A stretch of DNA of 64,000 nucleotides from an uncultured Planctomycetota bacterium (GTDB lineage: Bacteria > Planctomycetota > Planctomycetia > Isosphaerales > Isosphaeraceae), in the NCBI GenBank assembly GCA_963845755.1, contig CAWJTV010000011.1, positions 416,001 to 480,000 of the forward strand, written 5' to 3'. A program made the position numbers and the translations under genes. Below the pieces are notes generated by a model. That model worked only from the letters and a program-made list of their open reading frames with translations. It searched no databases and was not told the origin of the DNA. Shown here piece by piece: positions 5,201 to 59,224 of the stretch. Each line of letters begins with the position of its first letter. The first letter of the stretch is position 1.

Positions 5201-6249
5201 ACCAGCCAGCCCGGGCACGGTTTCGCTCAACGCCCAGGGCTCCCGGATCTCCGGATCGCATACTTACACCAGGACCGGTCTCTTCTCGACGCAAATCACG
5301 ATCCCACTGACTGGCGGCCCACCGCCCGTCGTCGTGTTTGGCCAGGCCAACGTCTCTGTCCCTCCGCCGCCAGCCAACCACGAATGCGATCGCCGCAAGG
5401 TCATCGATATCCACGTGGCCACATCCAATGGAATCTCGAATCACTTATTTGTTGAAGTCTCGCCCAGCTACAGGCCCACCGATCCGACGAAGGCGATGAA
5501 GACCAGCGTGACGACGCAGACGCTCGTGAACGCCACAACCGGCGAGACCACGACCAACACCGACTACACGACGACGTCGCCGGGCATCGTCCTGCCGCCG
5601 GGGACGATACTCCCGATGGGGACGAGCCTGCCGTCCGGTGGCACCTTCGTCTCCCCGGGCGCCGCGACGATCAACAACCTTCCCTCGGGCTACCAGCCCG
5701 GGACCGTGCCCAGCAATTTCTACCAGCCGATGCCGCCAACCCCCGCCCCCGCAACCGGTCCGGGCGCCATGAACGCCGCGCCGACGCCGGCGAGCGAAGC
5801 GTTGGCGGACAGGAACCGGGAGCCCGAGTTGGCCCCAATCGCGGAGAACGCGGCCCCAGCCGGCGCGGTCCTCCCAGGGGACCATCCCCGTCCCGACCGC
5901 CGCGTCGGGTCATCCTTTCGTACCAAGGGAAGCCATCCCGCCGCCGGTCTCGCGAACTTCCGTTCCGAGACCGACACCCGCCCCGCAACTCGCGGCCACG
6001 GCACCCGCCCGTGCCGCGGGCCTGGGAGGAACCTCGGGGCGCCCGAGTTCGAGGGAAGGGCGTCGAGACCCGGCCGTCGTCCCCGTGGCGACCCAGCCCC
6101 CGCTCGCGACGCGGCGGGGACCGGGACTCTTGCAACGAATGAGGTCTGCCGACAAGACCGCGGTCCCTGCCACGAGCGCCGCTCCGGCCACGACGAAGCC
6201 GCCCGCCCGGAAGTCAGTCCTGTCACGCGTCTTCGGCGGCGCGCAGTAA
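2214..6249 (+). CDS. Large secreted hypothetical protein (~1300 aa) with Ig/PKD-like domain and low-complexity C-terminus; several frameshifts
   Basis: Signal peptide at 2214. Consecutive overlapping ORFs 2360, 2860, 3490, 3671, 4398 and 4797 read as one protein. IDWGD...GSHTY PKD-like motif. Likely end RKSVLSRVFGGAQ-TAA at 6247-6249. Confidence 0.6.
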
Positions 6250-6292
6250 CCTACGCCGCGGTCGATGTCGGTTGTTGGAAGTTATTCGATTC

Positions 6293-7188
6293 TCAATATT
6301 GCGAGAAGCACCAATTCCGATGCCCTGGGACGACGGTATTGAGAGTTGGACAGCCTGTATAGACCGCCGGCAGGACATAGGCGGGTTGAGGACTGAAAGA
6401 CGGCGCGTGCCCGCAATAATAGCTCCCCCCAATGGGGGTTCCGCAGCAAGGGCAAGCCGATGTGGCCTGCCGTTTTGATGCCCGTGGAGTACGCGGGCGA
6501 AGGACGGTCCTGCCTTTCGTCTTGGCCGTGCCATCTGCGTTAAACGTGGGTTGGGTCTCCAGCCCATAAATCTCCCATTGGCCGTCGAGATCGTAATTAT
6601 CCAAGAGTCGCTGGCGCTCGTTCGGATTGTCCCACTCGAGCGTGATGACCGTGGCGCTTGGCGGCGGCGCCGGAGTCGATCCGAAAGTTGAGGTGTGCCC
6701 TGGAGCCGACAAGGCCGGCTTCGGGCGCGGGTGAGGAGTTTTGAGGGGTTAACCTCCAGAGCGGGTCGGACTGTAACAGTGGTATCGTCCTGAAGTACGG
6801 CGGTCATAGGGGCGGGATGAGGGGCACCTGGAGCAAGGAAGGGGAAAAGACTGATTTGCACGTAAGTGTCGTGTGGAAGCGTGATTTTTGTATCGTCATT
6901 GAACTTGACCTTACCATTCGGTTGGCGTATACCAGTGGCGCCACTTAGGACTGTACCCATCGTTACCCTCTCGAGCTTAACTTCGGTCTCCGGCAATAGC
7001 CAATCCTGGCCGTTGATCGTCACGCGAGTGTTGTTCGGAAGCCAGACGACTCGTTGTGCTGAGAGCGGGGCGATCTTGTCATCTGGAAGCGTAAATGGAT
7101 CTTGAGAGTGTGCTTTCGACCCCATCGAGAGTACGAGCAGTGCGGTGACGAGTGGCGCGAGCAAGTAGCGAAATCGCGGGGGTGTCAT
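6293..7188 (-). CDS. Secreted hypothetical protein, frameshift near 6730, Cys-rich tail
   Basis: Signal peptide MTPPRFRYLLAPLVTALLVLSMGSKAHSQ; continues in ORF 6293..6712. Confidence 0.55.
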
Positions 7189-7583
7189 GCAAGAAGCTCC
7201 TCATCCGATAATTCAGTAATAGGCTCGGAGGCCGCCGCGGAGCGTCGATCGGAGCGGATGGTTGCCGAACGGCGAAGACCCCACGATCTCTTGGCGGTCC
7301 GAAACCACGATGGCGCGATCATACCTCATTGCCATCGCTAACAAAATAGTCTACTCATTTTTCCAGAGCTGTGCATATCACCGAAATCTCCATCCTGCGC
7401 GGAGGCGCCCTTGGCGTCATTTCCGGCTCATTCCACGGTGCTGTGGCTCGCGTCGGTCGAGGCCGGGCACGGCGTCCGGCCACTGCCGGACCGGTCTGAT
7501 CCTTCATGAGGTTCAGGGCAGGTGTGTCGTCATCCGAAAGGGATAGGCCGCAAACCCGACTCGCATGCGGCAATGCCCGTAGG

Positions 7584-8599: not shown

Positions 8600-8819
8600 G
8601 CCGGTCGCATAAACCACACAACCGAGAACTCTTCACGCATCGTCAAAAGAAATCGCAATCAGATCGATCCTACCTGTCGGCTCAATCCGCAAGCCCATCG
8701 CAATCGTGACAATCGATAGCCGCAAGGCTGGCTTGCATGCGACAATGTCGGAGAGGTCAGCGGCGGGGTGTCGTTCCTGGCAGGACGTGGACCTCGCGAA
8801 CCGGAGGGGAGCGCGGAGT

Positions 8820-10799
8820 ATGTGCGGCATCTGCGGCGCGGTCTGGACCGGTCCGAACGGGGCGCTGGCGGCGGAATCGCTCGAGGCCATGATGGACAGG
8901 CTCGTCCATCGCGGGCCGGACGATGCCGGCGCCTACCGCGACAACCATGCCGCGCTGGGATTTCGCCGGCTCTCGATCATCGACCTGGCCGGCGGCCATC
9001 AGCCGCTCTCGAACGAGAACGGCACCGTCTGGACGGTCTTCAACGGCGAGATCTACAACTTCCCCTCGCTGCGGCGACGGTTGGAGGCCAAGGGGCACAC
9101 GCTCCGCTCGCAGGGCGACACCGAGGTCCTCGTTCACCTCTACGAGGATGAAGGGACGCGGATGTTCCGCCTGTTGCGCGGGATGTTCGCCCTGGCGATC
9201 TGGGACGAGCCCCGCCGCACGCTGATTCTGGCCCGCGACCGCATGGGCCAGAAGCCCCTGGTCTATCGCCAGCAAGGCGGACGCCTCACCTTCGCCAGCG
9301 AGCTCAAGGCCCTGCTGGCCCTGCCCGAGGCGGACGTCCCCCGCCGGATCGATCCCCTGGCGCTGGACCATTACCTGTGCTACGGATATGTCCCGCACCC
9401 GAGGACCATCCTGGAGGGGACGAGCAAGCTACCGCCGGCCCATTACGCCGTCTGGCACGACGGCGCGCTGACGATCGAACCCTACTGGCGACCCGACTGG
9501 AATGCCGAGCGCGTGCGGCCCGTCGAGGAGGATATCGAGGAGCTGCGCACGACCCTCGGCGACGCGGTGCGCGAGCAGATGATCGCGGACGTGCCGCTGG
9601 GGGCGTTCCTCTCGGGAGGCATCGACTCGACGATCATCGTGGGCCTGATGCAGCGCGCTTCTACTCGGCCGGTGAAGACCTTCGCGATCGGCTTCCCCGA
9701 CCCGAACTACGATGAGACGCACTATGCCGAGCTGGCCGCGCGGCACCTGGGGACCGAGCACCAGACCTTCCGCGTCGAGCCCAAGGCGTGGGAGACCCTG
9801 CCGCATCTGGCCTGGCAGTTCGACGAGCCGTTCGCCGACAGCTCGGCCCTGCCGACGTGGTACGTCGCGCGCGAGACCCGGCGCGAAGTCACGGTTGCCC
9901 TGACCGGCGATGCCGGCGACGAGCTCTTCGGCGGCTACGAGCGCTATCGGGCGCTGGCCCTGACCGAGCTGTTCCACCGTATCCCCGATCGCCCGCGCCG
10001 GGTCCTCGGCGGGACCATGGTCCGCGTCCTGCCGCGTTCGGCCCGGTCGAAGACCCGGCTCCGCAAAATCCAGCGGCTTTTCGAGAACATCAACGAGCCG
10101 GCCGACGCGCGCTACCTCGGCTGGATGACGACCTTCAACGAAGACGCCCGGCTGGCGCTCTATTCCGAGGATCAACTCGACCGCCTGGCCTCGGCCGCAT
10201 CGGCGACAGTCGACCCATCCGAGTCCGACCCGTCCACCCTCCTGGGCACGGCCTTCGCCGCCGCGTCACGACGCGACCCGGTCACGCGCGCCATGGTCGC
10301 CGATATCCTCACCTACTTGCCCGGCGACCTGCTGGTCAAGGTCAACCTGGCCAGCATGGCGCACAGCCTCGAATGCCGTGGGCCGTTCCTGGATCACCGG
10401 GTCGTCGAGCTGGCCGCCGCCATGCCGCTGGAACGCAAGATCCGCCCCGGCTCGGGCCGCTCCAAGGTCGTCCTCAAGCAGGCGTTCGCCGACTTGCTCC
10501 CTCCGCCCATCCAGAAGCGGGCGAAGATGGGGTTCGGCGTCCCGATCAGCCGATGGTTCCGCGACGATCTGAAGACCGAGCTCCGAGACGTCCTGCTCGA
10601 TCCCGTCTGCCTCAATCGCGGTCTGTTCCGGCCTGAGACGATCCGTGGCCTCATCGACGAGCATGTCGAAGGGAAACGCGAGCACTCGTTCCGCCTCTGG
10701 GCGCTCTTGATGCTGGAATTGTGGTTTCGGAGGCATCTGGATGAGGATCATCCGAAGCCGGTCGAGCCGGCGACGATTCAAGGAATGGGCGTCGCCTGA
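8820..10799 (+). CDS. asnB: Asparagine synthase (glutamine-hydrolysing)
   Basis: N-terminal MCGICG, HRGPD, RRLSIID, FNGEIYN, FLSGGIDS and PFLDH motifs. Confidence 0.95.
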   Translation: MCGICGAVWTGPNGALAAESLEAMMDRLVHRGPDDAGAYRDNHAALGFRRLSIIDLAGGHQPLSNENGTVWTVFNGEIYNFPSLRRRLEAKGHTLRSQGDTEVLVHLYEDEGTRMFRLLRGMFALAIWDEPRRTLILARDRMGQKPLVYRQQGGRLTFASELKALLALPEADVPRRIDPLALDHYLCYGYVPHPRTILEGTSKLPPAHYAVWHDGALTIEPYWRPDWNAERVRPVEEDIEELRTTLGDAVREQMIADVPLGAFLSGGIDSTIIVGLMQRASTRPVKTFAIGFPDPNYDETHYAELAARHLGTEHQTFRVEPKAWETLPHLAWQFDEPFADSSALPTWYVARETRREVTVALTGDAGDELFGGYERYRALALTELFHRIPDRPRRVLGGTMVRVLPRSARSKTRLRKIQRLFENINEPADARYLGWMTTFNEDARLALYSEDQLDRLASAASATVDPSESDPSTLLGTAFAAASRRDPVTRAMVADILTYLPGDLLVKVNLASMAHSLECRGPFLDHRVVELAAAMPLERKIRPGSGRSKVVLKQAFADLLPPPIQKRAKMGFGVPISRWFRDDLKTELRDVLLDPVCLNRGLFRPETIRGLIDEHVEGKREHSFRLWALLMLELWFRRHLDEDHPKPVEPATIQGMGVA

Positions 10800-34384: not shown

Positions 34385-37300
34385 TTACCTCGCCTTCTCC
34401 TCCCACCACCAAAGGCGTGGCAGCGGCTTGGGATCGGTCCAGATCCGATCGAGGGTATCGCCCTCGAACAGCTCGCCGTTCTTCATGACGTAGCGGACGG
34501 AATTCGTGTTCTGGATGTCCGCGAGCGGGTCCTTGGCGAGCACGAGGAGGTCGGCGAGCTTGCCGGTCTCGATGCTGCCAAGGTCCTGGGCGTAGCCAAT
34601 GGCCTCGGCACCGTGCAGGGTGGCGGCGCGGAGGACTTCCAGCGGCTTCCAGCCGCCACTGGCCATCGCCCACATCTCCCAGTGGTAGCCGATGCCCTGC
34701 ATCTCGCCGTGGCTGCCGATGCAGACGTGTCCGCCGGCGCGGGCGACCTTGGCCGCCGAGGCGGCGATCCTCGGGAAGACGTGCTCGTCCTTGTGGAACC
34801 ATTCCGAGCGCCGGACCTTGCCGTCGAGGATGTCGTGCGGGATGAACCGGCGGATCTTCGGGTCGTCGTGGATCGTGGTCGTCGTGAAGAAATAGGTCTC
34901 GCCGAACGGCCCGCCATAGGCGACCAGCAGCGTCGGCGTGTATGAGATCCCGGTCCGCGCGAACAGCTCGACGACATCATTGAAGAGCGGGACCACCGGC
35001 AGGCTGTGCTCGTTGCCGCTGAAGCCGTCGAGGGCGTGCGTCAGGTTCAGCTTGAGGTCGAGGCCGCCCTCGGTAGTCGGCATCACTTCGTTCTTGCGGC
35101 AGGCTTCGATCATCCACTGCCGCTGCTGTCGGTTTCCGATCATGTACGATTTCAGCGTGTTCGTGCGGTAGTACTTCTTGTACTTGGCCACGACCGCTTC
35201 CACGTCCTCGGCCGACTGGAAGTCGGTGTCGGAGAAAACCCCAGGACCGGTCGAAAACGCCCGCGGACCAACCATGTCGCCCATCTCGACGAGGTCCTGA
35301 TAGGCGAACATGTCGTTTGTACTGGTCTGAGGGTCGCGACCGGTCGTCACGCCATAAGCCAGGTTCGCGAAGAACGACCAGTTCTGCATGTCGAGGATCC
35401 CGCGGCGGATCTCGGACCAATGGGCATGGGTGTCAACGAAGCCGGGCACGATGGTCGTCCCCGACACGTCGCGGATCTTCGCGCCCTCGGGCACCTTGAC
35501 CGAGCCCTTGGGACCGACGCCCGCGATTCGATGGTCGGTGACGACGACGTCGCCGCCGTCAATCACCTCATCGCCGCGCATTGTGACGATCTTGGCCCCA
35601 CGGAGCACGATCGTCCCGCTCGGCCGGCGCCTGGGTCGCTCAACGACCACGGCGATTTCTTCGGGTTTGGGCTTCCGCGCCTTCTCCTCGGCCTCGGCCT
35701 TCTCCTTGTCCTGATCCTCGTCCATTTTGAGGGTCGTGAAGACCACGGAATCGAACGACAGGCGGAAGAAGCTGGAGCCGACCGCCCACGTGATCGTCTT
35801 GCCGCCGTCGGTCCAGGCGGCATAATCGGCACCGACGTCGGTGAGCTTCTTGAGCGGAACGGAGGGTTCGTGGACCGAGACCTTGGGTGCCTCGCCACCG
35901 AACCCGGGCAACGCCACGAGGTAGAGCTGATTTGTGACGCGGGCCAGCGCCCAACGTCCGTCGGGTCGGAGCAGGATCTCGTCGGCCGGCTCCGGCTCGC
36001 TGGGTCGGTAGGCCGTCTTGCCGGTGACACTGATATGGGTCCGCCGGTCGGTGCCATCGTATCGCATCGAGACCAGGCCCTGGGGCGTGGTGACGAAGAT
36101 GCGATCGGTCTCCTTCGCGAAGTGGGGGCGGCTGGCGCCCCGGGCGGGACGGATCAGCGTGGTATCGCCCCCCTCGGCCGGGATCCAGACGAGGTCGAGC
36201 CCGGCGGTCGGTCCGAAATCGACCGGGTTCTCGACGTGCTCGCGCCGAGGTGCGCGCAGGGCGACGATCCGCTTGCCGTCGGGAGACCAGACCGGGTCGC
36301 GATAGAACGCAGTGGCTCGCGTGAGCCGCGTGGGCTCGCCAGTGCCGTCTCCGGGCCGCTTCCAGAGATGGCCGCCCTCCGGCGCCCAGCTCACGTATGC
36401 CAGCCACTTCCCATCGGGCGACCAGCTCGGGTGGAACTCGCGTGCGCCCTCGGCCGAGAGTGGTCGCGGTTTCCCCTCAGGCAGGTCGACGACATGGAGC
36501 TGCGTGAGGGCCGAGAACGCCAGATGCTTGCCGTCGGGCGATGGCGACGGCGCCTGGATCAGCGCGCCCGCACCGGGCCGTCGTCCACGCGGAGTGGGAA
36601 ATTCAGCCGCGAGCCCACGGGTTGCGAGACCTTGGTTGAGAAAGGGATCACCGGATCGTCGCCCGTGACGATATCGATTCGATGGATCTTGCCGCCGTAG
36701 GCCGCCAGGACATTCTTCCCATCCGGCGTGAAGGCGTAGCCCGGGATCAGATCCCGGGTGAACCGCGATTCTTGCTCGTCGCGCTGGATTGGCCGTTTCA
36801 GCCATCGTTCCTCGCCGCTGGCCAGATCGCGAATCCGCAGCCCGGTCTCGTTGTCGAGGCGCGTGCCGTAGACCAGCTTCGTCCCATCCGGCGAGAGTAC
36901 GGGGCGAAAGGCGCTGCCCTGCGCCTCGGTGATCGTATCCTCATCGCCGGTAATCCGGTCGCGTCGCGCGACCTGCGAGAGCGGAAAGTCCAAGTTGTTA
37001 TAAGCGTTGAACATCTTGTTCCGCTTGGTGTAATAGAGGTGCTTGCCGTCCTTTGTGGCGACGGCGCCGATGGCGTGCACCCACTCGTCGGGCTTGGCGT
37101 CGGGCTTCGACTTGCTCTTGGTGACCGCAACGCCCGAGCCGCCACGGATATGGTACATCCACAGCTCGAAGGCACCCCAGGGAAGCTGAGGCTGTCGCGA
37201 GACGAGCAGGTAATCGCCGTCGGGCGTCCACGCCGGCGAGGCGAAGAGGCTCTGCTTATCCTTGGTCAGCGGCCGGGGATTCGATCCATCCGCCCCGGCG

Positions 37301-37735
37301 ACCCACAGGTTCTCGGCGCCGTCGCGGTCGCTGACAAATGCGATCATCTTGCCGTCCGGCGAGAAGGTTGGCTGGCTGTCGAACGCCGGATCCCGTGGTG
37401 ATCGCCTTCGCCTCTCCACCAGCGATCGGGAGGGCATACAGGTCGCCCAGTAGCTCGAAAACGATCGTCTTGCCATCGGGCGAGACGTCGAGCGAGACCC
37501 ACGTCCCTTCGTCGGTCGTGAACTCGACGGTCCGGTCCGGTTTCAGCGGCAGGCCCTGAGCCTTCTTCTTCGGCTGGTCCTTCTTCTCCTTCGAATCGGG
37601 CTTCTCCTTGTCCTTCTCCTGTGCGGCCTGCGCCCGCGTCTCATTCGGGGTGCATAGGACAACCGGCAGGACCATCATCCCGGTGAAAATGCCCAGGCAC
37701 GCGATCCGGATCAGGCGCGGGAACATCGGCGTCAT
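34385..37735 (-). CDS. Secreted amidohydrolase with N-terminal TolB-like (PD40) beta-propellers; frameshifts near 37395 and 36570-36620
   Basis: EGTWVSLDVSPDG and SPDG repeats; PGFVDTHAH, GSHG and GSIETGKLADL motifs. Confidence 0.88.
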
Positions 37736-37930
37736 GGGTGTTCCGATCCTCGGAGGTCGAAAGGAGAGAGCACTCGGTGGGCGTCGCAATGTCACCCACA
37801 ACTTTCGACCTATCCTACCGGAACGTCGACGCCATTCCAGGGTCATCAAGTTGGCGGAGATAACGAGCAGCCGGCTCACGTTGGCTCGGCGGCGCCACAT
37901 GGGATGTTACTGGCAGGACTTCACGGTTAC

Positions 37931-38624
37931 TCAGCGGCGGCCTGACGTTCGACGCGGCGGGAAGAATTCGTCGCCGGACTCTGCCTTATACGGCTGGCGG
38001 CGGATTACTTCTGCCGTCCGAACCAAAGCGTTCATGACATACCCCGCCAGGACGACCGACCAGGGACCCTCGCCCGGAATGCCATAAGCTTCACGGACCT
38101 GCGGCCTCTGCAGCAACGTTGCAAGTGCGGGATACTGCCTCGCCAACGACTCCAGAGATACGGAAGGCAGCGTTTCCGGATCCGTCTGAAGCAGGTCGAT
38201 CTCGACCTCGCGATACGCCTCGATCACCATTCCAGCGCAGCTAAATCTGCGACAGATCATTGTCCCGTCCGGCGCCTGTACAGGTCGGACATGGGGGGCG
38301 ATGATGTACTGTTTTCGGCGATCGTTTCGAATCTGCGCTGCTTCGTACTCTGATTCCAGTTCGTCGATGAATACGTCGATCTGCCGGATTTCGTTGACGG
38401 TGAGAGCCGCCGTCCCTGCGCAGTGAATCGAAGAACGCGAAGTTCCCCGTTCCAGGGGGGGCATCATGTGGACCAGCGAAATCTCGTCGGATTCTCCGAA
38501 CGAACTGATCTCCTCACCGGCAAGGCCGACATGGCCGATAAAATCCGGCGTCCCGCTCGAGTCATGTCCAGCGACGTCATATTTGCGGATTGTTACCGGA
38601 GTTCCGCCGAACCGCTGCCGGCAT
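37931..38624 (-). CDS. Putative permuted papain-like (NlpC/P60, YiiX-type) enzyme; likely start ATG 38624 with an early frameshift (ORF 37931..38743)
   Basis: His before Cys: IGHVGLA ... RFSCAGMVIEAY; GAGGA RBS before 38624. Confidence 0.6.
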
Positions 38625-38699
38625 ATCGGATTTCCTCTTTTCACGATCCTCGTCAAGCAGACCAACACTACGAAGCAACGGCGGATCTCCACCTTCAGG

Positions 38700-39869
38700 T
38701 CAGCCGGCTTCCTGTGTCGCCAATGAACCGACCAGCCCTTCAACGGATTCGAAGGAGCTTTCCTTCAGTTCATGGCGGAGACGCATCACACGGCGAGCGA
38801 GCAACTGCCTGAACCAGGGGACTTTGAGTTCCGAGACGATTTGAAGTACTTCCGCGACGTGTCGGCTTCGTAGAAGTATCAGCCCGAGGGTCGCATTGAG
38901 GGCAATCGTCCCATACTTCTCTCTCGCCAGAAGTCGCGGATTCAAATACGTCTTGGCAATCTCCCGAAGTCGATCACCCAACTCCGGCAGGGAGTCGTTC
39001 GGTTCCGGCGGATTGGCCGTGAGCTTGCGCACGATCATCTTGACCAGTTCGAGCTCGACCTCCAGGGGAACCGGCGTCCGCGAACCGGCCTCGAGTAAAT
39101 GGGCCGCATACGCGAGAGCCTCGTCGGCTTGCAATGTCGCGACGCACTTTCCGAATCGCCGCGCCAACTGCCACGATATCGTCCGGGCTGTTGCTCTCGC
39201 GGTAATCGGTGATGAAGCTCGCAGGGCCGCGTTAAGGCGGCCGAGTTGTGTGGGCCCGAAGTCGACGACCTCGGCTTCAATGATCAGTCCAAGCTGGTCC
39301 TGATGGCCCAGGGACCTGTCTTGGAGGCGATGCAGAAGCTCCTCAGACGAAAACACATTGGCATCTTCTTGAGGCTTCGCGAAGGACAACTCTTGCGGTG
39401 GCTGAAGGTCAGTCCGCCTAGAACGGCTTTCCGCGGCATACCGTAAGGACAGAGAGGCTAACGAAGGCCTCCCGCCCCGACGCTGAACTGTCGCTTTCGT
39501 ATGAATATGAAGTGGCTCGCCGGATGGCCATCCCCATTTTCCGCGTCCCCATGCTGGGTAAGATAGCCATTCGCAAACTGCTTGAGCCGCTGGCAAAGGG
39601 CAACCTTTTCTCGTTTCATCATCTTCGGCGTTCCATAGCAAAAAGGCCCCCCCCTGATTAACAACGGTCTGCATGTAGTCCCAGAATTGACCCCGCATTT
39701 CTGACTGAGCGTCGGTCGTTGAGGTTTCCGCCACCTTCTCATACTGACGAAGACCCTGGCTTGTGTTGACGTTGACGATACGCCGGACAAGCGCTGTGCA
39801 ACGCGTCTTCGAGGTACCAACCTGGTCGGGCCGATTCGACGTTGATGGCCCGTGGTCGGATCTCGACAC
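38700..39869 (-). CDS. Hypothetical protein with all-helical C-terminal half; true start may be ATG 40020; internal frameshifts
   Basis: 389-aa ORF with amphipathic Leu-rich helices; alternate-frame segment DDIVAVGAAIRK. Confidence 0.6.
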   Translation of the reverse strand: MSRSDHGPSTSNRPDQVGTSKTRCTALVRRIVNVNTSQGLRQYEKVAETSTTDAQSEMRGQFWDYMQTVVNQGGAFLLWNAEDDETRKGCPLPAAQAVCEWLSYPAWGRGKWGWPSGEPLHIHTKATVQRRGGRPSLASLSLRYAAESRSRRTDLQPPQELSFAKPQEDANVFSSEELLHRLQDRSLGHQDQLGLIIEAEVVDFGPTQLGRLNAALRASSPITARATARTISWQLARRFGKCVATLQADEALAYAAHLLEAGSRTPVPLEVELELVKMIVRKLTANPPEPNDSLPELGDRLREIAKTYLNPRLLAREKYGTIALNATLGLILLRSRHVAEVLQIVSELKVPWFRQLLARRVMRLRHELKESSFESVEGLVGSLATQEAG

Positions 39870-40020
39870 ATTCGTACGACCGTATCCACTCCAGGGAGCT
39901 GGTGGCCCTTACTTAGAGTAGCCGCACGCCAGCGGGCGAAGAAGCGGTGCCTCAAATTTTCGTCGTTCGGCTAGGGGAAGCTAGCCACATTAAATCACTC
40001 ACGGCAGACGTTACTCCCAT

Positions 40021-40729
40021 TCATTCTTCGTGCAACTCAAGAAAGCCATCCGGAATCCATTGGTCGAAGGAGTCTCGCATGATTGTCAGTTTCTGTTGAG
40101 CCTTCTCGACTTTTTCAAGAAGATCCTTCAACACATCAGCAGAGAGTAACAGTTCGATGCATCTGGTTTCCTCCGCCTGGGTTTCGTAGTCCAACTTGAG
40201 CGTCGTCAGAGAGACCAGTCCTTCAACCCGTTGTCTTGCTCGGTCGAACACGGGACGGACATCGCAAATCAGCTCAACCCGCTGGGCTTTGTTGCCTGTC
40301 AGGGTCGCGAGCCTTGGGCCTTCTGAAATCGATCCCAGGCAGGATATTCCCTGATGAGATTCGCCAATTTCTGCTGTATCGTTGCGAGAATCTCCTCTGA
40401 AACACGCTTGAGCGTTCTGTCTGCGTTGGCTCCGCGCCACTCTTGAAGAGAAGCTTAGAACGCAATCGATTCGCCCCGGCGGAATGCTGTGGATCGCGCT
40501 GATCACCGCAGACACCTGTTGCTCCTCGGGCATCACCTCCCGTACAAGGCTTTTCAGTCCCCCTTCGTTCAGGAAGCCGCCGGCTTTTTCCAAGGCGGCG
40601 ACCATGCGATCGATGATTCGCTCGGTATCCCGGCGATCACAAGCAGATCCTCAACCATCTGAGGCGGAACTAGGTGTCCGCCAAGCAGTTCGGTTGGGGA
40701 ACCTGCGAAAAGAAAACGCGGTCTGCCAT
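40021..40729 (-). CDS. Probable prokaryotic COMMD-like protein (helical N-domain plus COMM-like C-domain); frameshifted
   Basis: Reconstructed ...FQKAQRLATLTGNKAQRVELICDVRPVFD...LTTLKLDYET...IELLLSADVLKDLLEKVEKAQQKL; GAGG RBS before ATG 40729. Confidence 0.6.
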
Positions 40730-43816: not shown

Positions 43817-44939
43817 GTGATCGTGCTCAAGGTGCTGCAACTGATCCCGACGCTGGACCGTTCGGCGCCGAGAAGCAGATGGTGATGCTGGCCAAGGGGC
43901 TGCCGCGCGACCGGTTCCGGGTCGAGGTCGCGGCGCTGACGCGCTCGGGCCCCCTCGAGTCCGAGCTGAACGCCGCGGGGATTCCCGTCACGGTGATCGG
44001 CAAGCCGTTGAAGCTGGACCCGATCGCGCTGATCCGCCTGGCGCGGTTCCTCAAGTCAGGGGAATTCGACGTGGTCCAGAGCTGGATCTTCGCGGCGAAC
44101 GCGTATGGGCGGGTCGCGGCGCGACTGGCGGGGGTCCCGGTCGTGGTCGTGGCGGAGATGGCCGTGGACCTGTGGAAGGGGCGGTTCGATCGGCTCGTCG
44201 ACCGCCGGCTGGCGACGTGGTGCGATCGCCTGGTCGGCAACTCGCAGGCGGTCGTCGATTTCTATCGAGGGCTAGGAGTGCCCGGCGACCGGCTGGCGAT
44301 GATCTATTCGGGGATCGGCGACGAGGAGCCGCCGGCCGACGACCCGCGCACCGTCCGCTCCGAGCTGGGATTCGCACCCGAGGCGCCGATGGTCCTGTTC
44401 GCCGGCCGGCTGGCCGAGCAGAAGCGCGTGGACGACCTCCTGAAGGCGCTCGACCTGCTCCAGCACGTGCAGGCCGGCGTCTGTACGGTCATCGCCGGCG
44501 ACGGCCCGCTGCGGGGACGACTGGAAGCGACCGCACACGCCTATCAACTCGACGGCCGGGTCCGGTTCCTGGGCCATCGCGATGACGTCCCGCGGCTGAT
44601 GGCCGCCGCCGACATCCTCGTCTTGCCCAGCGCCTACGAGGGGCTGCCGAACGTGGTGCTCGAGGCGATGCGGTTCCGCAAGCCGGTCGTCGCCACTGCC
44701 GCGCCAGGGACCACCGAAGTCGTCGTCGACGGCGAGACCGGGATCCTGGTCCCCATCGGCGACGTGATCGTCCTGACCCGGGCGATCCGCGACCTGATCC
44801 GCGACCCCGCCCGGCGCGCCGCCTGGGCGAGGCCGGCCGAGCCCGTGCCGAGACCCACTTCGGCGCCGAGGCCATGGTCGCCCACTTCGCCGAGCTGTAC
44901 GAGCAGCTCGCGCGTTCGAAGGGGATCGGTGGAATGTAG
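43817..44939 (+). CDS. Glycosyltransferase family 4; frameshifts near 43862 and 44815-44840
   Basis: KVLQLIPTL..GAEKQ, GRL.EQK and PSAYEGLPNVVLEAM motifs. Confidence 0.88.
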
Positions 44940-57493: not shown

Positions 57494-57898
57494 TCATGCC
57501 GGCTGGGTGGAGACCTGGCGCCAGACGGCCAGCCAACGGTTATCCCGCTTCTCAAGGACAAAGACGTCGCGGCCGGTCTCCCTATTGACCTTGCCCTCGA
57601 TCGTGTACTCGATCTCGAAGGGATAACTCACCACAGCTACTGTCTCGTAGACGTCAACTTGCGGGTCCGATTCCCGGTAAGACGCCACGGATGCGTACTC
57701 GCAGAAACCTCGATAACTGGCCACACACTTCTCCTTCCCTTCCACGAATCGTCGGCCGTCGGGGCCGATGATGACCATGCGGTCGTGGAACAGTTCGGAG
57801 AGCTGTTCCGGTTGTCCCTCGCGCCAGGCGGCGTTGATCCGTCGCACAACATCCCAGGCTTCCTTCTGGGCCGCGGTCTTCAGGTCATCCATCGCCAT
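57494..57898 (-). CDS. NTF2-like / DUF4440 protein
   Basis: SnoaL-like pattern ending ...GRDVFVL.K....W.AVWR. Confidence 0.8.
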   Translation of the reverse strand: MAMDDLKTAAQKEAWDVVRRINAAWREGQPEQLSELFHDRMVIIGPDGRRFVEGKEKCVASYRGFCEYASVASYRESDPQVDVYETVAVVSYPFEIEYTIEGKVNRETGRDVFVLEKRDNRWLAVWRQVSTQPA

Positions 57899-57948
57899 TG
57901 CTCCTCCAAGTCAACAAGGACACGTGGTGAGTCCGGCCGGCTCCTGGC

Positions 57949-59224
57949 CTACTGCCTCGGCCCGCGCAGATTCGCTTCGAACTCGATCGCCTGTCCCGGC
58001 ACGAGGCGGTCGCATGCGATGGTGAGCTTCGGCGCGGTGCCGCCGGCCGGGATCTCGTCCGTCCGGGATTCACCGGGGAACAGTCCCTTGAGCGACCGCT
58101 CGGCGCGGACGCCGTCGACCGCGAGATAGGCGTCGTGATAGATCGGGGCGACGCCCGAGTTGGTGACGGTGACGCGCGACCGCGACGCACCGGCCTCGAA
58201 CTTCAGGATGCGGAACTTGTAGCCGCAGGCCAGCCCCGCCTCGCGGATGCGGTCCAGCTTCTGATACTTCGGCTGGTCGTTGGCGATCATGAAGGTGATG
58301 TGGAAGTCCGCCGCGGCCTTCTCGAAGGGGATGCCGTGCGGGCCGTCGGCCGCCAGCGCCTGCTTCTGATCGCGAGTCGTGTAGTAACTGATCTCGCCAC
58401 CGGCCGGCGCGCGCCTCCACCGATCGCGCCCCAGGACATTCCAGTTCGGCTCGTTCTCCTCCGCATGTTGCTGGCACAGGAACGAATCATCGAAGACGCC
58501 GAATGGGATCTTCAGGAGTTCCGGATTCGTGGCGAACGGCGCCCGCGACGCGGCGGCCGCGTCAACCGAGATCATCCAGGGCGTCTTCCGGAAGACCCGG
58601 CCCAGGTGGCGGGCGAAGGCAGACTGGAACGACTTGTCCGGAAAAGTCTTTCCCAGCATCATCGGCCCGCTGTAGATGTGATACTCGGCCCAGAGTCCAA
58701 ACCCCGTCTCGACGAAGGCCAGTCGGGGATCGTTGTCGTACCGCGCCGCCAGCTTCTCGTAGAACTCGAGCGTGAATTCCTGGAGTCCCCGGTGCGACCA
58801 GTCCGGAAAGGTGGTCGGCTTCTCCTCGCTCCGACCGCGCGTCTCGTGATAGTCGGGGAGGGCCTTGATGTAGCCGGGGACCGTCGTCGGATTCCCGGGG
58901 TAGACGAAGTAGAACCGCACGATGGCCTGGTGCCTCCGCGGCGACCCGCTCCAGCAGCCGGTCCATCACGCTCCAGTCATATTGGCCGCGCTCGGTCACG
59001 ATGTCGCCGTATTTCATGTAACGGTACTCGAGCTGGATCGAGGCCGTGCGGTTGTGCTCCGACGTGCTCCAGAACACGAGCCCCGTCATCGGCTGTACGT
59101 GGGTGATCCGGCTGATCAGTGGCACGGGTGCGAACCGTTCCTGGGCCCGGCAGTCCCGCGAGATGAACAGGCTGGCGAGGAACAGGATCGACGCAGGAAT
59201 GGCGATGGTGTTGATACGTCTCAT
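57949..59224 (-). CDS. DUF4832 domain secreted protein (glycoside hydrolase-like); frameshift near 58935
   Basis: QPMTGLV.W, GFGLWAEYH, GGEISYY, CGY.F and N.GVAPIY.DA motifs. Confidence 0.75.

Follow-up and report, generated by a model that had tools for sequence, protein, structure and literature searches.

Proteins of the COMMD fold form part of the eukaryotic Commander complex, in which, according to the portion of a preprint drawn on here (10.64898/2026.02.02.703414), the HN domains bind separate partner proteins. Among bacterial members, the protein MBK5214510 from Flavobacteriaceae (PDB 9q6a/9q6c/9q6d) forms octamers and decamers, as given in the part of the article used here (Liu et al., Nat Commun 2026, PMC13392464). 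The same part of this article calls the function of prokaryotic COMMD-like proteins unclear and describes an association of COMMD-like genes with type VI secretion system (T6SS)-like genes in Myxococcota. In a separate field, an excerpt on permuted NlpC/P60 enzymes (PMC3142127) gives their conserved residues in the order His, polar residue, Tyr and Cys, reports a fatty acid held in the pocket of YiiX, and presents YiiX and a related B. cereus enzyme as proposed N-acyl amidases. Here we describe a locus in which relatives of both kinds of protein are predicted to be encoded together, separated by a gene for a third, partner protein. The locus occupies positions 37931-40729 of a 64,000-nucleotide stretch of DNA (hereafter the window) from an uncultured planctomycete of the family Isosphaeraceae (assembly GCA_963845755.1, contig CAWJTV010000011.1, positions 416,001 to 480,000).

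In regard to the layout of the locus, a mechanical listing of open reading frames (ORFs) gave three minus-strand frames, 40021-40605, 38700-39869 and 37931-38743, while alignment with homologues showed the real genes to be longer than listed and spread over several frames. The resulting features, all on the minus strand, are as follows:

40729-40021, minus: gene 1, COMMD-like by profile and model; ATG at 40729 (MADRVFF), stop TGA at 40023-40021; about 235 amino acids in intact homologues
40020 or 40002 to 38700, minus: gene 2, partner protein; about 373 amino acids in intact homologues
38700-39330 (approximate limits), minus: C-terminal domain of gene 2, kept throughout the related loci
38625-38699, minus: spacer between gene 2 and gene 3, 75 nt
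38624-37931, minus: gene 3, predicted permuted papain-like enzyme; ATG at 38624 (MPA); about 230 amino acids
38531-38533, minus: first conserved His codon of gene 3, CAT (His32 in the numbering of homologue P0004)
38468-38470, minus: second conserved His codon of gene 3, CAC (His53)
38237-38239, minus: conserved Cys codon of gene 3, TGC (Cys130)

A first-pass annotation made from the sequence had noticed three co-oriented, lower-GC genes between an amidohydrolase and a DinB gene, a gene 1 stop abutting an ATG, and a gap of about 76 nt ahead of gene 3, and all of these observations hold. On either side stand a PD40/amidohydrolase gene and a DinB_2 gene, and the measured gap is 75 nt, exceeding what is seen in 31 related loci (median 14 nt, range -26 to 63). 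The ATG at 40020 does directly abut the gene 1 stop, although homologues favour as the start of gene 2 an in-frame GTG at 40002, 18 nt past this ATG, with the same spacing as in locus L004 of a related Isosphaeraceae metagenome-assembled genome (MAG).

The arrangement proved to be recurrent. Scanning with patterns centred on gene 3 brought up 14 loci in species genomes and a further 50 in metagenomes, with at least four duplicate pairs among them (L026/27, L032/33, L040/41, L055/56). Of these loci, 44 had 800 bp or more of upstream sequence, and first-pass profile hidden Markov models (HMMs) found gene 2 in 32 of the 44. In Polyangiales, the gene upstream of gene 3 is distantly homologous to gene 2 (hhalign probability 97.1%, E 7e-11). 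After one HMM iteration, the C-domain of gene 2 was found directly upstream of gene 3 in 42 of the 44, the exceptions being a truncated gene 3 (L029) and a deletion remnant in which the start of gene 1 is joined to the end of gene 3 (L066). Where at least 2200 bp of upstream sequence was available (32 loci), 20 loci held the full triad, 11 the pair without gene 1 and one the remnant. The invariant core is the gene 2 C-domain together with gene 3; the COMMD-like gene often joins it as a third part but can be dispensed with. The three-gene unit of the first-pass annotation stands insofar as the triad recurs as an operon in these 20 of 32 informative loci, but what is conserved throughout is the smaller, two-part core.

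Several gene 1/gene 2 junctions overlap by 4-14 nt, and pairwise distances in 20 non-redundant triads are correlated between genes 2 and 3 (r 0.92), 1 and 2 (0.83) and 1 and 3 (0.79); such correlations speak only for inheritance as one unit, not for contact. The form of gene 2 varies with the presence of gene 1. In all 22 loci with gene 1, gene 2 encodes 325-438 amino acids, whereas complete gene 2 ORFs in loci without it encode 221-361, several of them the C-domain alone, and HMM matches there begin at profile positions of about 120-150. Furthermore, a protein of 385 amino acids (P0076, from a cluster of 8 sequences) carries gene 1's HN domain, matching the profile of that gene with E 2.9e-30, fused to the C-domain of gene 2, and leaves out both the COMM domain and the gene 2 N-domain. 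Loci L023 and L024 carry an eroded HN/gene 2 fusion followed by gene 3, and short gene 2 forms such as P0069 start with MADRV, as gene 1 does. In the Polyangiales variant (L016:3661-8558, L017:3571-8603), the homologues of gene 2 (375-402 amino acids) and gene 3 are preceded by a GAF histidine kinase and a receiver-type protein of 140 amino acids. From this set of variants, the pair appears as the stable unit, while the upstream part looks like an exchangeable input.

A second gene 2/gene 3 pair, without gene 1, is present in the same genome at about C11:915-917 kb, the gene 3 sequences being about 36% identical. Near it, a patatin-like phospholipase gene lies two genes downstream and an M14 carboxypeptidase gene upstream. 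The second pair and the decayed copies found in metagenomes are located as follows:

G000:C11:909458-922042 (locus L081), minus: second pair, at locus coordinates 5932-7566
L064:5331-6274: gene 3 with an internal deletion
L066:5803-6186: remnant that runs from the start of gene 1 into the end of gene 3
L029:2456-2851: 5'-truncated gene 3

As for the product of gene 1, a word-indexed search gave 3 relatives and a full HMMER pass 441 representatives (E <= 0.001). A profile built from 120 family members matches PDB 9q6a, the MBK5214510 structure, over nearly its full length (E 4.5e-14), and 9za1 with E 0.024. The AlphaFold2 model of homologue P0001, with a predicted local distance difference test score (pLDDT) of 93, shows an HN domain built of helices and, after it, a COMM domain, with helices in residues 12-143, strands at 147-161, 168-182 and 188-194, and a helix at 197-224. 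In Foldseek comparisons this model matched 9q6a/9q6c (E 8e-8 to 6e-7, TM-score 0.61-0.73) and the chains of the human COMMD ring (E 7e-6 to 1e-4, probability 1.0). The HN plus COMM architecture expected of the family is thus present in the model of P0001, with significant similarity to solved members, and gene 1 is, as judged from profile and model, a bacterial COMMD-like protein, as the first-pass annotation had proposed.

For gene 3, 58 relatives were collected, none with a Pfam domain. The AlphaFold2 model of P0004, from an alignment of 53 sequences, reaches a pLDDT of 91.6, with strands in residues 11-71 and 113-128 and with Cys130 opening a helix at 130-139. VIA structural comparison placed permuted or related papain-like enzymes in 7 of the best 8 rows: YiiX 2if6_B at the top (Z 9.4, root-mean-square deviation (rmsd) 4.2, 150 residues aligned), then the B. 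cereus enzyme 3kw0_A (Z 8.5, rmsd 3.9, 137 aligned), TseH 6v98_A (Z 6.7, rmsd 4.2, 124 aligned), MARTX RID 5xn7_B (Z 5.0, rmsd 3.9, 115 aligned), DeSI-1 2wp7_A (Z 5.0, rmsd 6.1, 113 aligned), PLAAT4 7zot_A (Z 4.3, rmsd 3.4, 91 aligned) and Aichivirus 2A 7zv6_B (Z 3.4, rmsd 4.0, 98 aligned). Foldseek gave a weak match of the model to YiiX 2if6 (probability 0.57-0.63). His32 is invariant in 53 of 53 sequences, His53, Tyr107 and Cys130 are each at least 90% conserved, and all four are kept in the window copy. Along the alignment, gene 3 follows the His/polar/Tyr/Cys order of the permuted enzymes, so that His32, placed by the model on a beta-strand, is the candidate catalytic His, His53 the candidate polar third member of the triad and Cys130 the candidate nucleophile. 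The order of the core in the model is permuted, with the beta-sheet subdomain first and the nucleophile-bearing helical subdomain second.

The structural matches, the conserved residues and the model agree with the earlier suggestion of a permuted Cys-His enzyme, and gene 3 is, on these grounds, a permuted papain-like enzyme of the NlpC/P60 superfamily with YaeF/YiiX-like topology. On the other hand, Pfam gave no match to Peptidase_C92, LRAT or NLPC_P60 at E <=1 for the window ORF, P0004, P0007 or P0056, and no such family was found when the gene 3 profile was run against PDB sequences. Since it falls outside the curated families by sequence, gene 3 is filed as a new family of the superfamily and not as a member of C92.

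Gene 2 is represented by 20 homologues, well conserved in the C-terminal half and variable in the N-terminal half. It had been pictured as an all-helical, HEAT/ARM-like protein, and no helical-repeat family was matched in Pfam at E <=1, in a PDB profile search or in the Atlas; there was likewise no match of any kind in Pfam (E <=1), PADLOC or NCBIfam, a PDB search with the gene 2 profile gave 0 sequences at E <=10, and Atlas scores were <=0.85, with no model. The idea that gene 2 is a hidden COMMD paralogue was ruled out by comparison with gene 1 (hhalign probability 2%).

In a complex prediction, gene 2 (24-row alignment) and gene 3 (53 rows) were combined. The predicted complex has an ipSAE score of 0.83, with the best of 3 controls at 0.00, which is in line, for the gene 2/gene 3 pair, with the physical partnership implied by the scaffold-adaptor-effector layout of the first-pass annotation. 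A score of 0.83 is reached by 116 of 157 solved complexes and by 2 of 215 mismatched pairs, a yardstick that is approximate here, the alignments being our own. At least 58% of contacts are shared between runs, with a partner pLDDT of at least 81. The predicted interface involves residues 174-340 of gene 2 (in P0063) and residues 77-102, 105, 116-125, 140 and 142 of gene 3, where it is formed by a long helix and a hairpin just ahead of Cys130. The best-conserved motifs of gene 2 lie at this predicted interface, with a mean identity of 0.66 compared to 0.52 elsewhere. The prediction supports binding of gene 3 by the C-domain of gene 2.

The composition and the distribution of the locus suggest an accessory element. 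Its GC content is 0.571, compared to a genome mean of 0.644 (standard deviation 0.026), a value as low being found in only 0.67% of 10,118 same-size windows of the genome, and the triad is the lowest-GC stretch of its size within the 64 kb. Codon use was examined as GC and as GC content at third codon positions (GC3) only, and in many related loci GC3 is below that of the flanks. In a sample of 401 genomes of the phylum, this one included, gene 3 is present in 2 and the gene 1 family in 6. Flanks vary from locus to locus, with genes for glycosyltransferases, gyrB, thiC, AdoHcy hydrolase and transporters, and there is no conserved fourth gene. In the related MAG (L004), the triad stands beside the same chloride-channel and glycosyltransferase genes as in the window, so the unit is older than this genome; synonymous divergence between the two is 0.74-1.5 in the triad, above the 0.42-0.58 of the flanks. 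The description of the operon as acquired is therefore supported by low GC content and patchy occurrence, but not as a recent gain by this genome only.

In L004, gene 3 is followed by two genes (8784-10593; a DUF4440/SnoaL-like gene and an ORF of 437 amino acids) that are found in the window about 19.6 kb away (57500-59200) and in the opposite relative orientation, which indicates a rearrangement breakpoint right after gene 3. In a Phycisphaerales chromosome (L012:11051-16493), terminase large-subunit-like and helix-turn-helix (HTH)/S24 repressor-like genes lie 2.4-7.5 kb downstream of the triad and may be a prophage remnant. At the locus itself, promoter and terminator scans gave results no better than shuffled sequence, Rfam and tRNA scans gave 0 matches each, and a scan for flanking repeats found none that were convincing.

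Five other genomes hold remote relatives of gene 1, each heading a small co-oriented operon of low GC3 with unknown partners; these come from a gene 1-centred census that covers 400 Planctomycetota genomes, whereas the metagenome scan was centred on gene 3. HMMs did not find genes 2 and 3 in these five loci:

L075:5974-8090: remote COMMD-like operon
L078:4355-6651: remote COMMD-like operon
L076:5650-7307: remote COMMD-like operon
L077:5232-6636: remote COMMD-like operon
L079:2438-4115: remote COMMD-like operon

The third genes of L075 and L078 have a His...His...Cys motif resembling that of gene 3, with hhalign comparisons against single sequences not significant (probability 1-2%); the protein of the third gene in L075 falls among unnamed Atlas clusters, and the third gene of L076 is a DUF7689 gene with an N-terminal Cys motif.

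The state of the window copy requires separate consideration. Frameshifts suspected in the first-pass annotation are real in this sequence: frameshift-aware alignment places about 14 indels over 2.8 kb, with all three genes affected, as listed here together with conserved genes of the same genome that are also broken:

near 40707, 40615, 40455, 40423, 40407 and 40315, minus: gene 1, 6 indels
near 39217 and 39150 (C-domain), minus: gene 2, at least 7 indels, of which only these two are confidently placed
codons 3-4, just past the start, minus: gene 3, 1 indel, the remainder being open
C34:79366-83015: rpoB, 1 break
C34:567489-571586: rpoC, 2 breaks
C25:256019-259175: secA (one copy), 1 break
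C11:955025-957483: gyrA, 2 breaks
C20:681422-682349: TssC (one copy), 1 break

One explanation is that the triad in this genome is a dead remnant of three pseudogenes, whatever intact copies do elsewhere, and we regard it as a tentative one. Indel density is roughly eleven-fold above that of the essential genes rpoB, rpoC, secA and gyrA (6 breaks in about 13.4 kb, or about 0.45 per kb), homopolymer content does not account for the local excess (0.045 compared to 0.039), and decayed copies are known from the other loci listed above. However, the essential genes are broken too, which means that the assembly itself generates indels. After frame correction, gene 1 is 82% identical to P0001 over 232 codons, and no stop codons are left across 232, 209 and 234 codons of genes 1, 2 and 3. 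Measured against L004, the ratio of nonsynonymous to synonymous substitution rates (dN/dS) amounts to 0.18 in gene 1, 0.25 in the C-domain of gene 2 and 0.15 in gene 3, in the range of the flanking genes (0.13-0.23). We consider it likely that the indels are mostly assembly errors, perhaps worse here since accessory regions polish poorly; very recent real decay is possible but doubtful. The many indel errors probably also lower the completeness estimate of the assembly (87.9%).

Frame changes were seen at other places in the window. The PD40/amidohydrolase gene downstream of gene 3 (34385-37900, minus) is listed as three overlapping frames, 34385-36805, 36559-37476 and 37256-37900, which implies two frameshifts. 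At 44800-44933, the second GT4 glycosyltransferase gene shifts frame near its 3' end relative to the L004 orthologue, and the gene at 57991-59200 changes frame near 58945.

The reading that we put forward, and that we hold to be about evenly balanced between right and wrong, is that of a mobile, patchily inherited and regulated effector module, in which the COMMD-like ring is the input platform for the enzyme-partner pair. The core pair would consist of a cytoplasmic cysteine enzyme, the product of gene 3, and the C-domain of gene 2, gripping the enzyme on the face made by the helix and the hairpin, beside the nucleophile. Gene 1, judged by its homology to the bacterial protein of solved structure, would form a ring of 8 to 10 subunits, to which the N-domain of gene 2, extra in copies with gene 1, would tether the enzyme-partner pair. 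The ring would then act as an input or regulatory platform, in the place taken in Polyangiales by the GAF histidine kinase and the receiver, and gene 2 would control access to the enzyme or its activity. By analogy to its nearest structural relatives, the gene 3 enzyme would most likely hydrolyse or transfer an acyl (lipid-type) group. Such biology looks more like an accessory conflict or toxin-antitoxin-like element than a housekeeping pathway, given the patchy occurrence, the low GC content, several copies per genome, the remnants and the pair outliving the loss of the ring.

Several observations weigh against this reading. Gene 1 is missing from 11 of the 32 loci, so a ring is not needed to retain the pair, and the window's own copy, with its indels, may be dead. 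In the part of PMC13392464 used here, no complex between a COMMD-like protein and a neighbour was predicted in the clusters examined from Myxococcota, Chlamydia and Haloarcula. The top VIA score of 9.4 for gene 3 is modestly above the Z 7-8 typical of unmatched models, and since such values are common, the fold assignment leans on how consistent the list is and on the conserved residues. In the predicted complex, the pLDDT of gene 2 itself is only 64-65, the interface side of gene 3 is not extra conserved (0.46 compared to 0.56 elsewhere), and His32, His53 and Cys130 are outside the named interface, which gives no support for inhibition by occlusion. Finally, PADLOC matched none of the three proteins (best Csx1, E 0.0015 for P0001) and, among 79 flank ORFs, only 5, in each case by way of a generic domain (kinase, HTH, ATPase), and no relatives were found in viral or plasmid collections.

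These last results bear most directly on the defence role suggested in the first-pass annotation, which they fail to support. In its explicit form, that of anti-phage abortive infection, the COMMD-like ring would sense infection and free or activate the papain-like enzyme, which would damage the cell. Such a scheme could draw on the patchy, low-GC module with variable flanks, decayed copies and a swappable upstream input, and is countered by the PADLOC results, by flanks not enriched in defence genes, by the viral and plasmid searches and by a literature search that found nothing joining COMMD and anti-phage; as the defence islands of Planctomycetota are poorly charted, this counter-evidence is weak, and we hold abortive infection to be unlikely. 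The conflict could also be one between cells, with genes 3 and 2 as a secreted (type VI) effector-immunity pair and the COMMD-like protein as a chaperone or adaptor. Resemblance of gene 3 to TseH, TssC genes on contig C20 of this genome and a T6SS-associated DUF2169 gene about 5.7 kb downstream of the pair in L017 are in its favour. However, VgrG, PAAR, Hcp and DUF2169 were not found among the flank ORFs of the Planctomycetota loci L004-L014, gene 3, with its roughly 230 amino acids, has no extra N-terminal delivery domain, and the putative immunity gene stands upstream of the enzyme. An immunity gene ahead of its effector is an unusual order for effector-immunity pairs, and this is the explanation that we find very improbable.

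In a housekeeping role, genes 2 and 3 would encode the two subunits of an acyl hydrolase or transferase serving the metabolism of the envelope or of lipoproteins, and a structural scaffold would be added. The fatty acid bound by YiiX and the N-acyl amidase proposal fit such a role, as does the reported existence of two-component NlpC/P60-type acyltransferase systems (LnsAB). Occurrence in so few genomes of the phylum, variable flanks and low GC content, and alignments of genes 2 and 3 in which no signal peptide or membrane segment is visible, make it quite unlikely in our judgement. The regulated effector module with an exchangeable input is the reading carried forward here.

In agreement with the first-pass annotation, no named system with this composition was found in the family libraries or the literature. 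None of the three proteins had a significant match in Pfam, PADLOC, NCBIfam or PHROGs, and no publication was found that links COMMD with NlpC, YiiX or a permuted papain. The work newly defines two protein families without a Pfam, NCBIfam or PADLOC model, one of them a predicted new branch of permuted papain-like enzymes. Furthermore, the operon offers a concrete lead to the role of bacterial COMMD-like ring proteins, comprising a compact and recurrent set of candidate partners, a natural fusion between the HN domain and the partner, and a variant in which a two-component sensor takes the place of the ring, so that the question of the prokaryotic COMMD ring is narrowed to a few bench experiments. 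A far broader speculation, improbable in our view, is that COMMD-like rings are the sensing and organising hub of an unrecognised class of prokaryotic conflict modules with swappable effectors, and that the Commander core descends from a bacterial scaffold for effector docking. If this were true, a papain-like acyl hydrolase held by a dedicated adaptor would be the effector of the COMMD-like hub here, and the HN domain would have been a partner-binding module already before the eukaryotic Commander.

Compared to described systems, the module appears to work like sensor-adaptor-effector modules or toxin-antitoxin modules with a third gene, and it fits no named one. With type II and tripartite toxin-antitoxin systems it has in common a tightly linked gene pair in which the binding partner lies upstream of the enzyme, a third gene that may or may not be present, a scattered occurrence, the presence of more than one copy in a genome and remnants of decayed copies; the two genes are adjacent and co-oriented, and their products bind, in this case by prediction only. 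It differs in a partner of about 230-370 amino acids with no recognisable DNA-binding domain, and in an enzyme and partner that match no known toxin or antitoxin family. With TseH, the Vibrio cholerae T6SS effector (PDB 6v98), gene 3 would share the papain-like NlpC/P60-type fold, while the Planctomycetota loci have no adjoining secretion-system genes, another gene order and a presumably cytoplasmic partner. The predicted likeness is closer to YiiX and the B. cereus enzyme, in the permuted topology, the His and polar residue before the Cys and the Tyr upstream of it, but the structurally aligned sequences are 11-15% identical, gene 3 has His where those enzymes have Glu in the third place of the triad, and gene 3 is always encoded beside a dedicated partner gene.

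Gene 1 and MBK5214510 are of similar length (about 235 and 240 amino acids) and share an HN domain made of helices as well as a COMM domain built from three strands and one long helix; unlike the latter, gene 1 opens a compact operon that also encodes a partner protein and a predicted cysteine enzyme, and natural fusions tie the gene 1-type HN domain to the partner protein. The COMMD fold is likewise common to gene 1 and the CCC core of Commander (COMMD1-10 ring, CCDC22, CCDC93; PDB 8f2r, 8p0w), where the HN domains have the partner-binding role noted above; we infer such a role for gene 1's HN domain. In eukaryotes, ten paralogues assemble into a heterodecameric ring that acts in endosomal sorting, while the bacterial module has a single COMMD-like gene, lacks a CCDC-like partner and probably carries an enzyme as its cargo.

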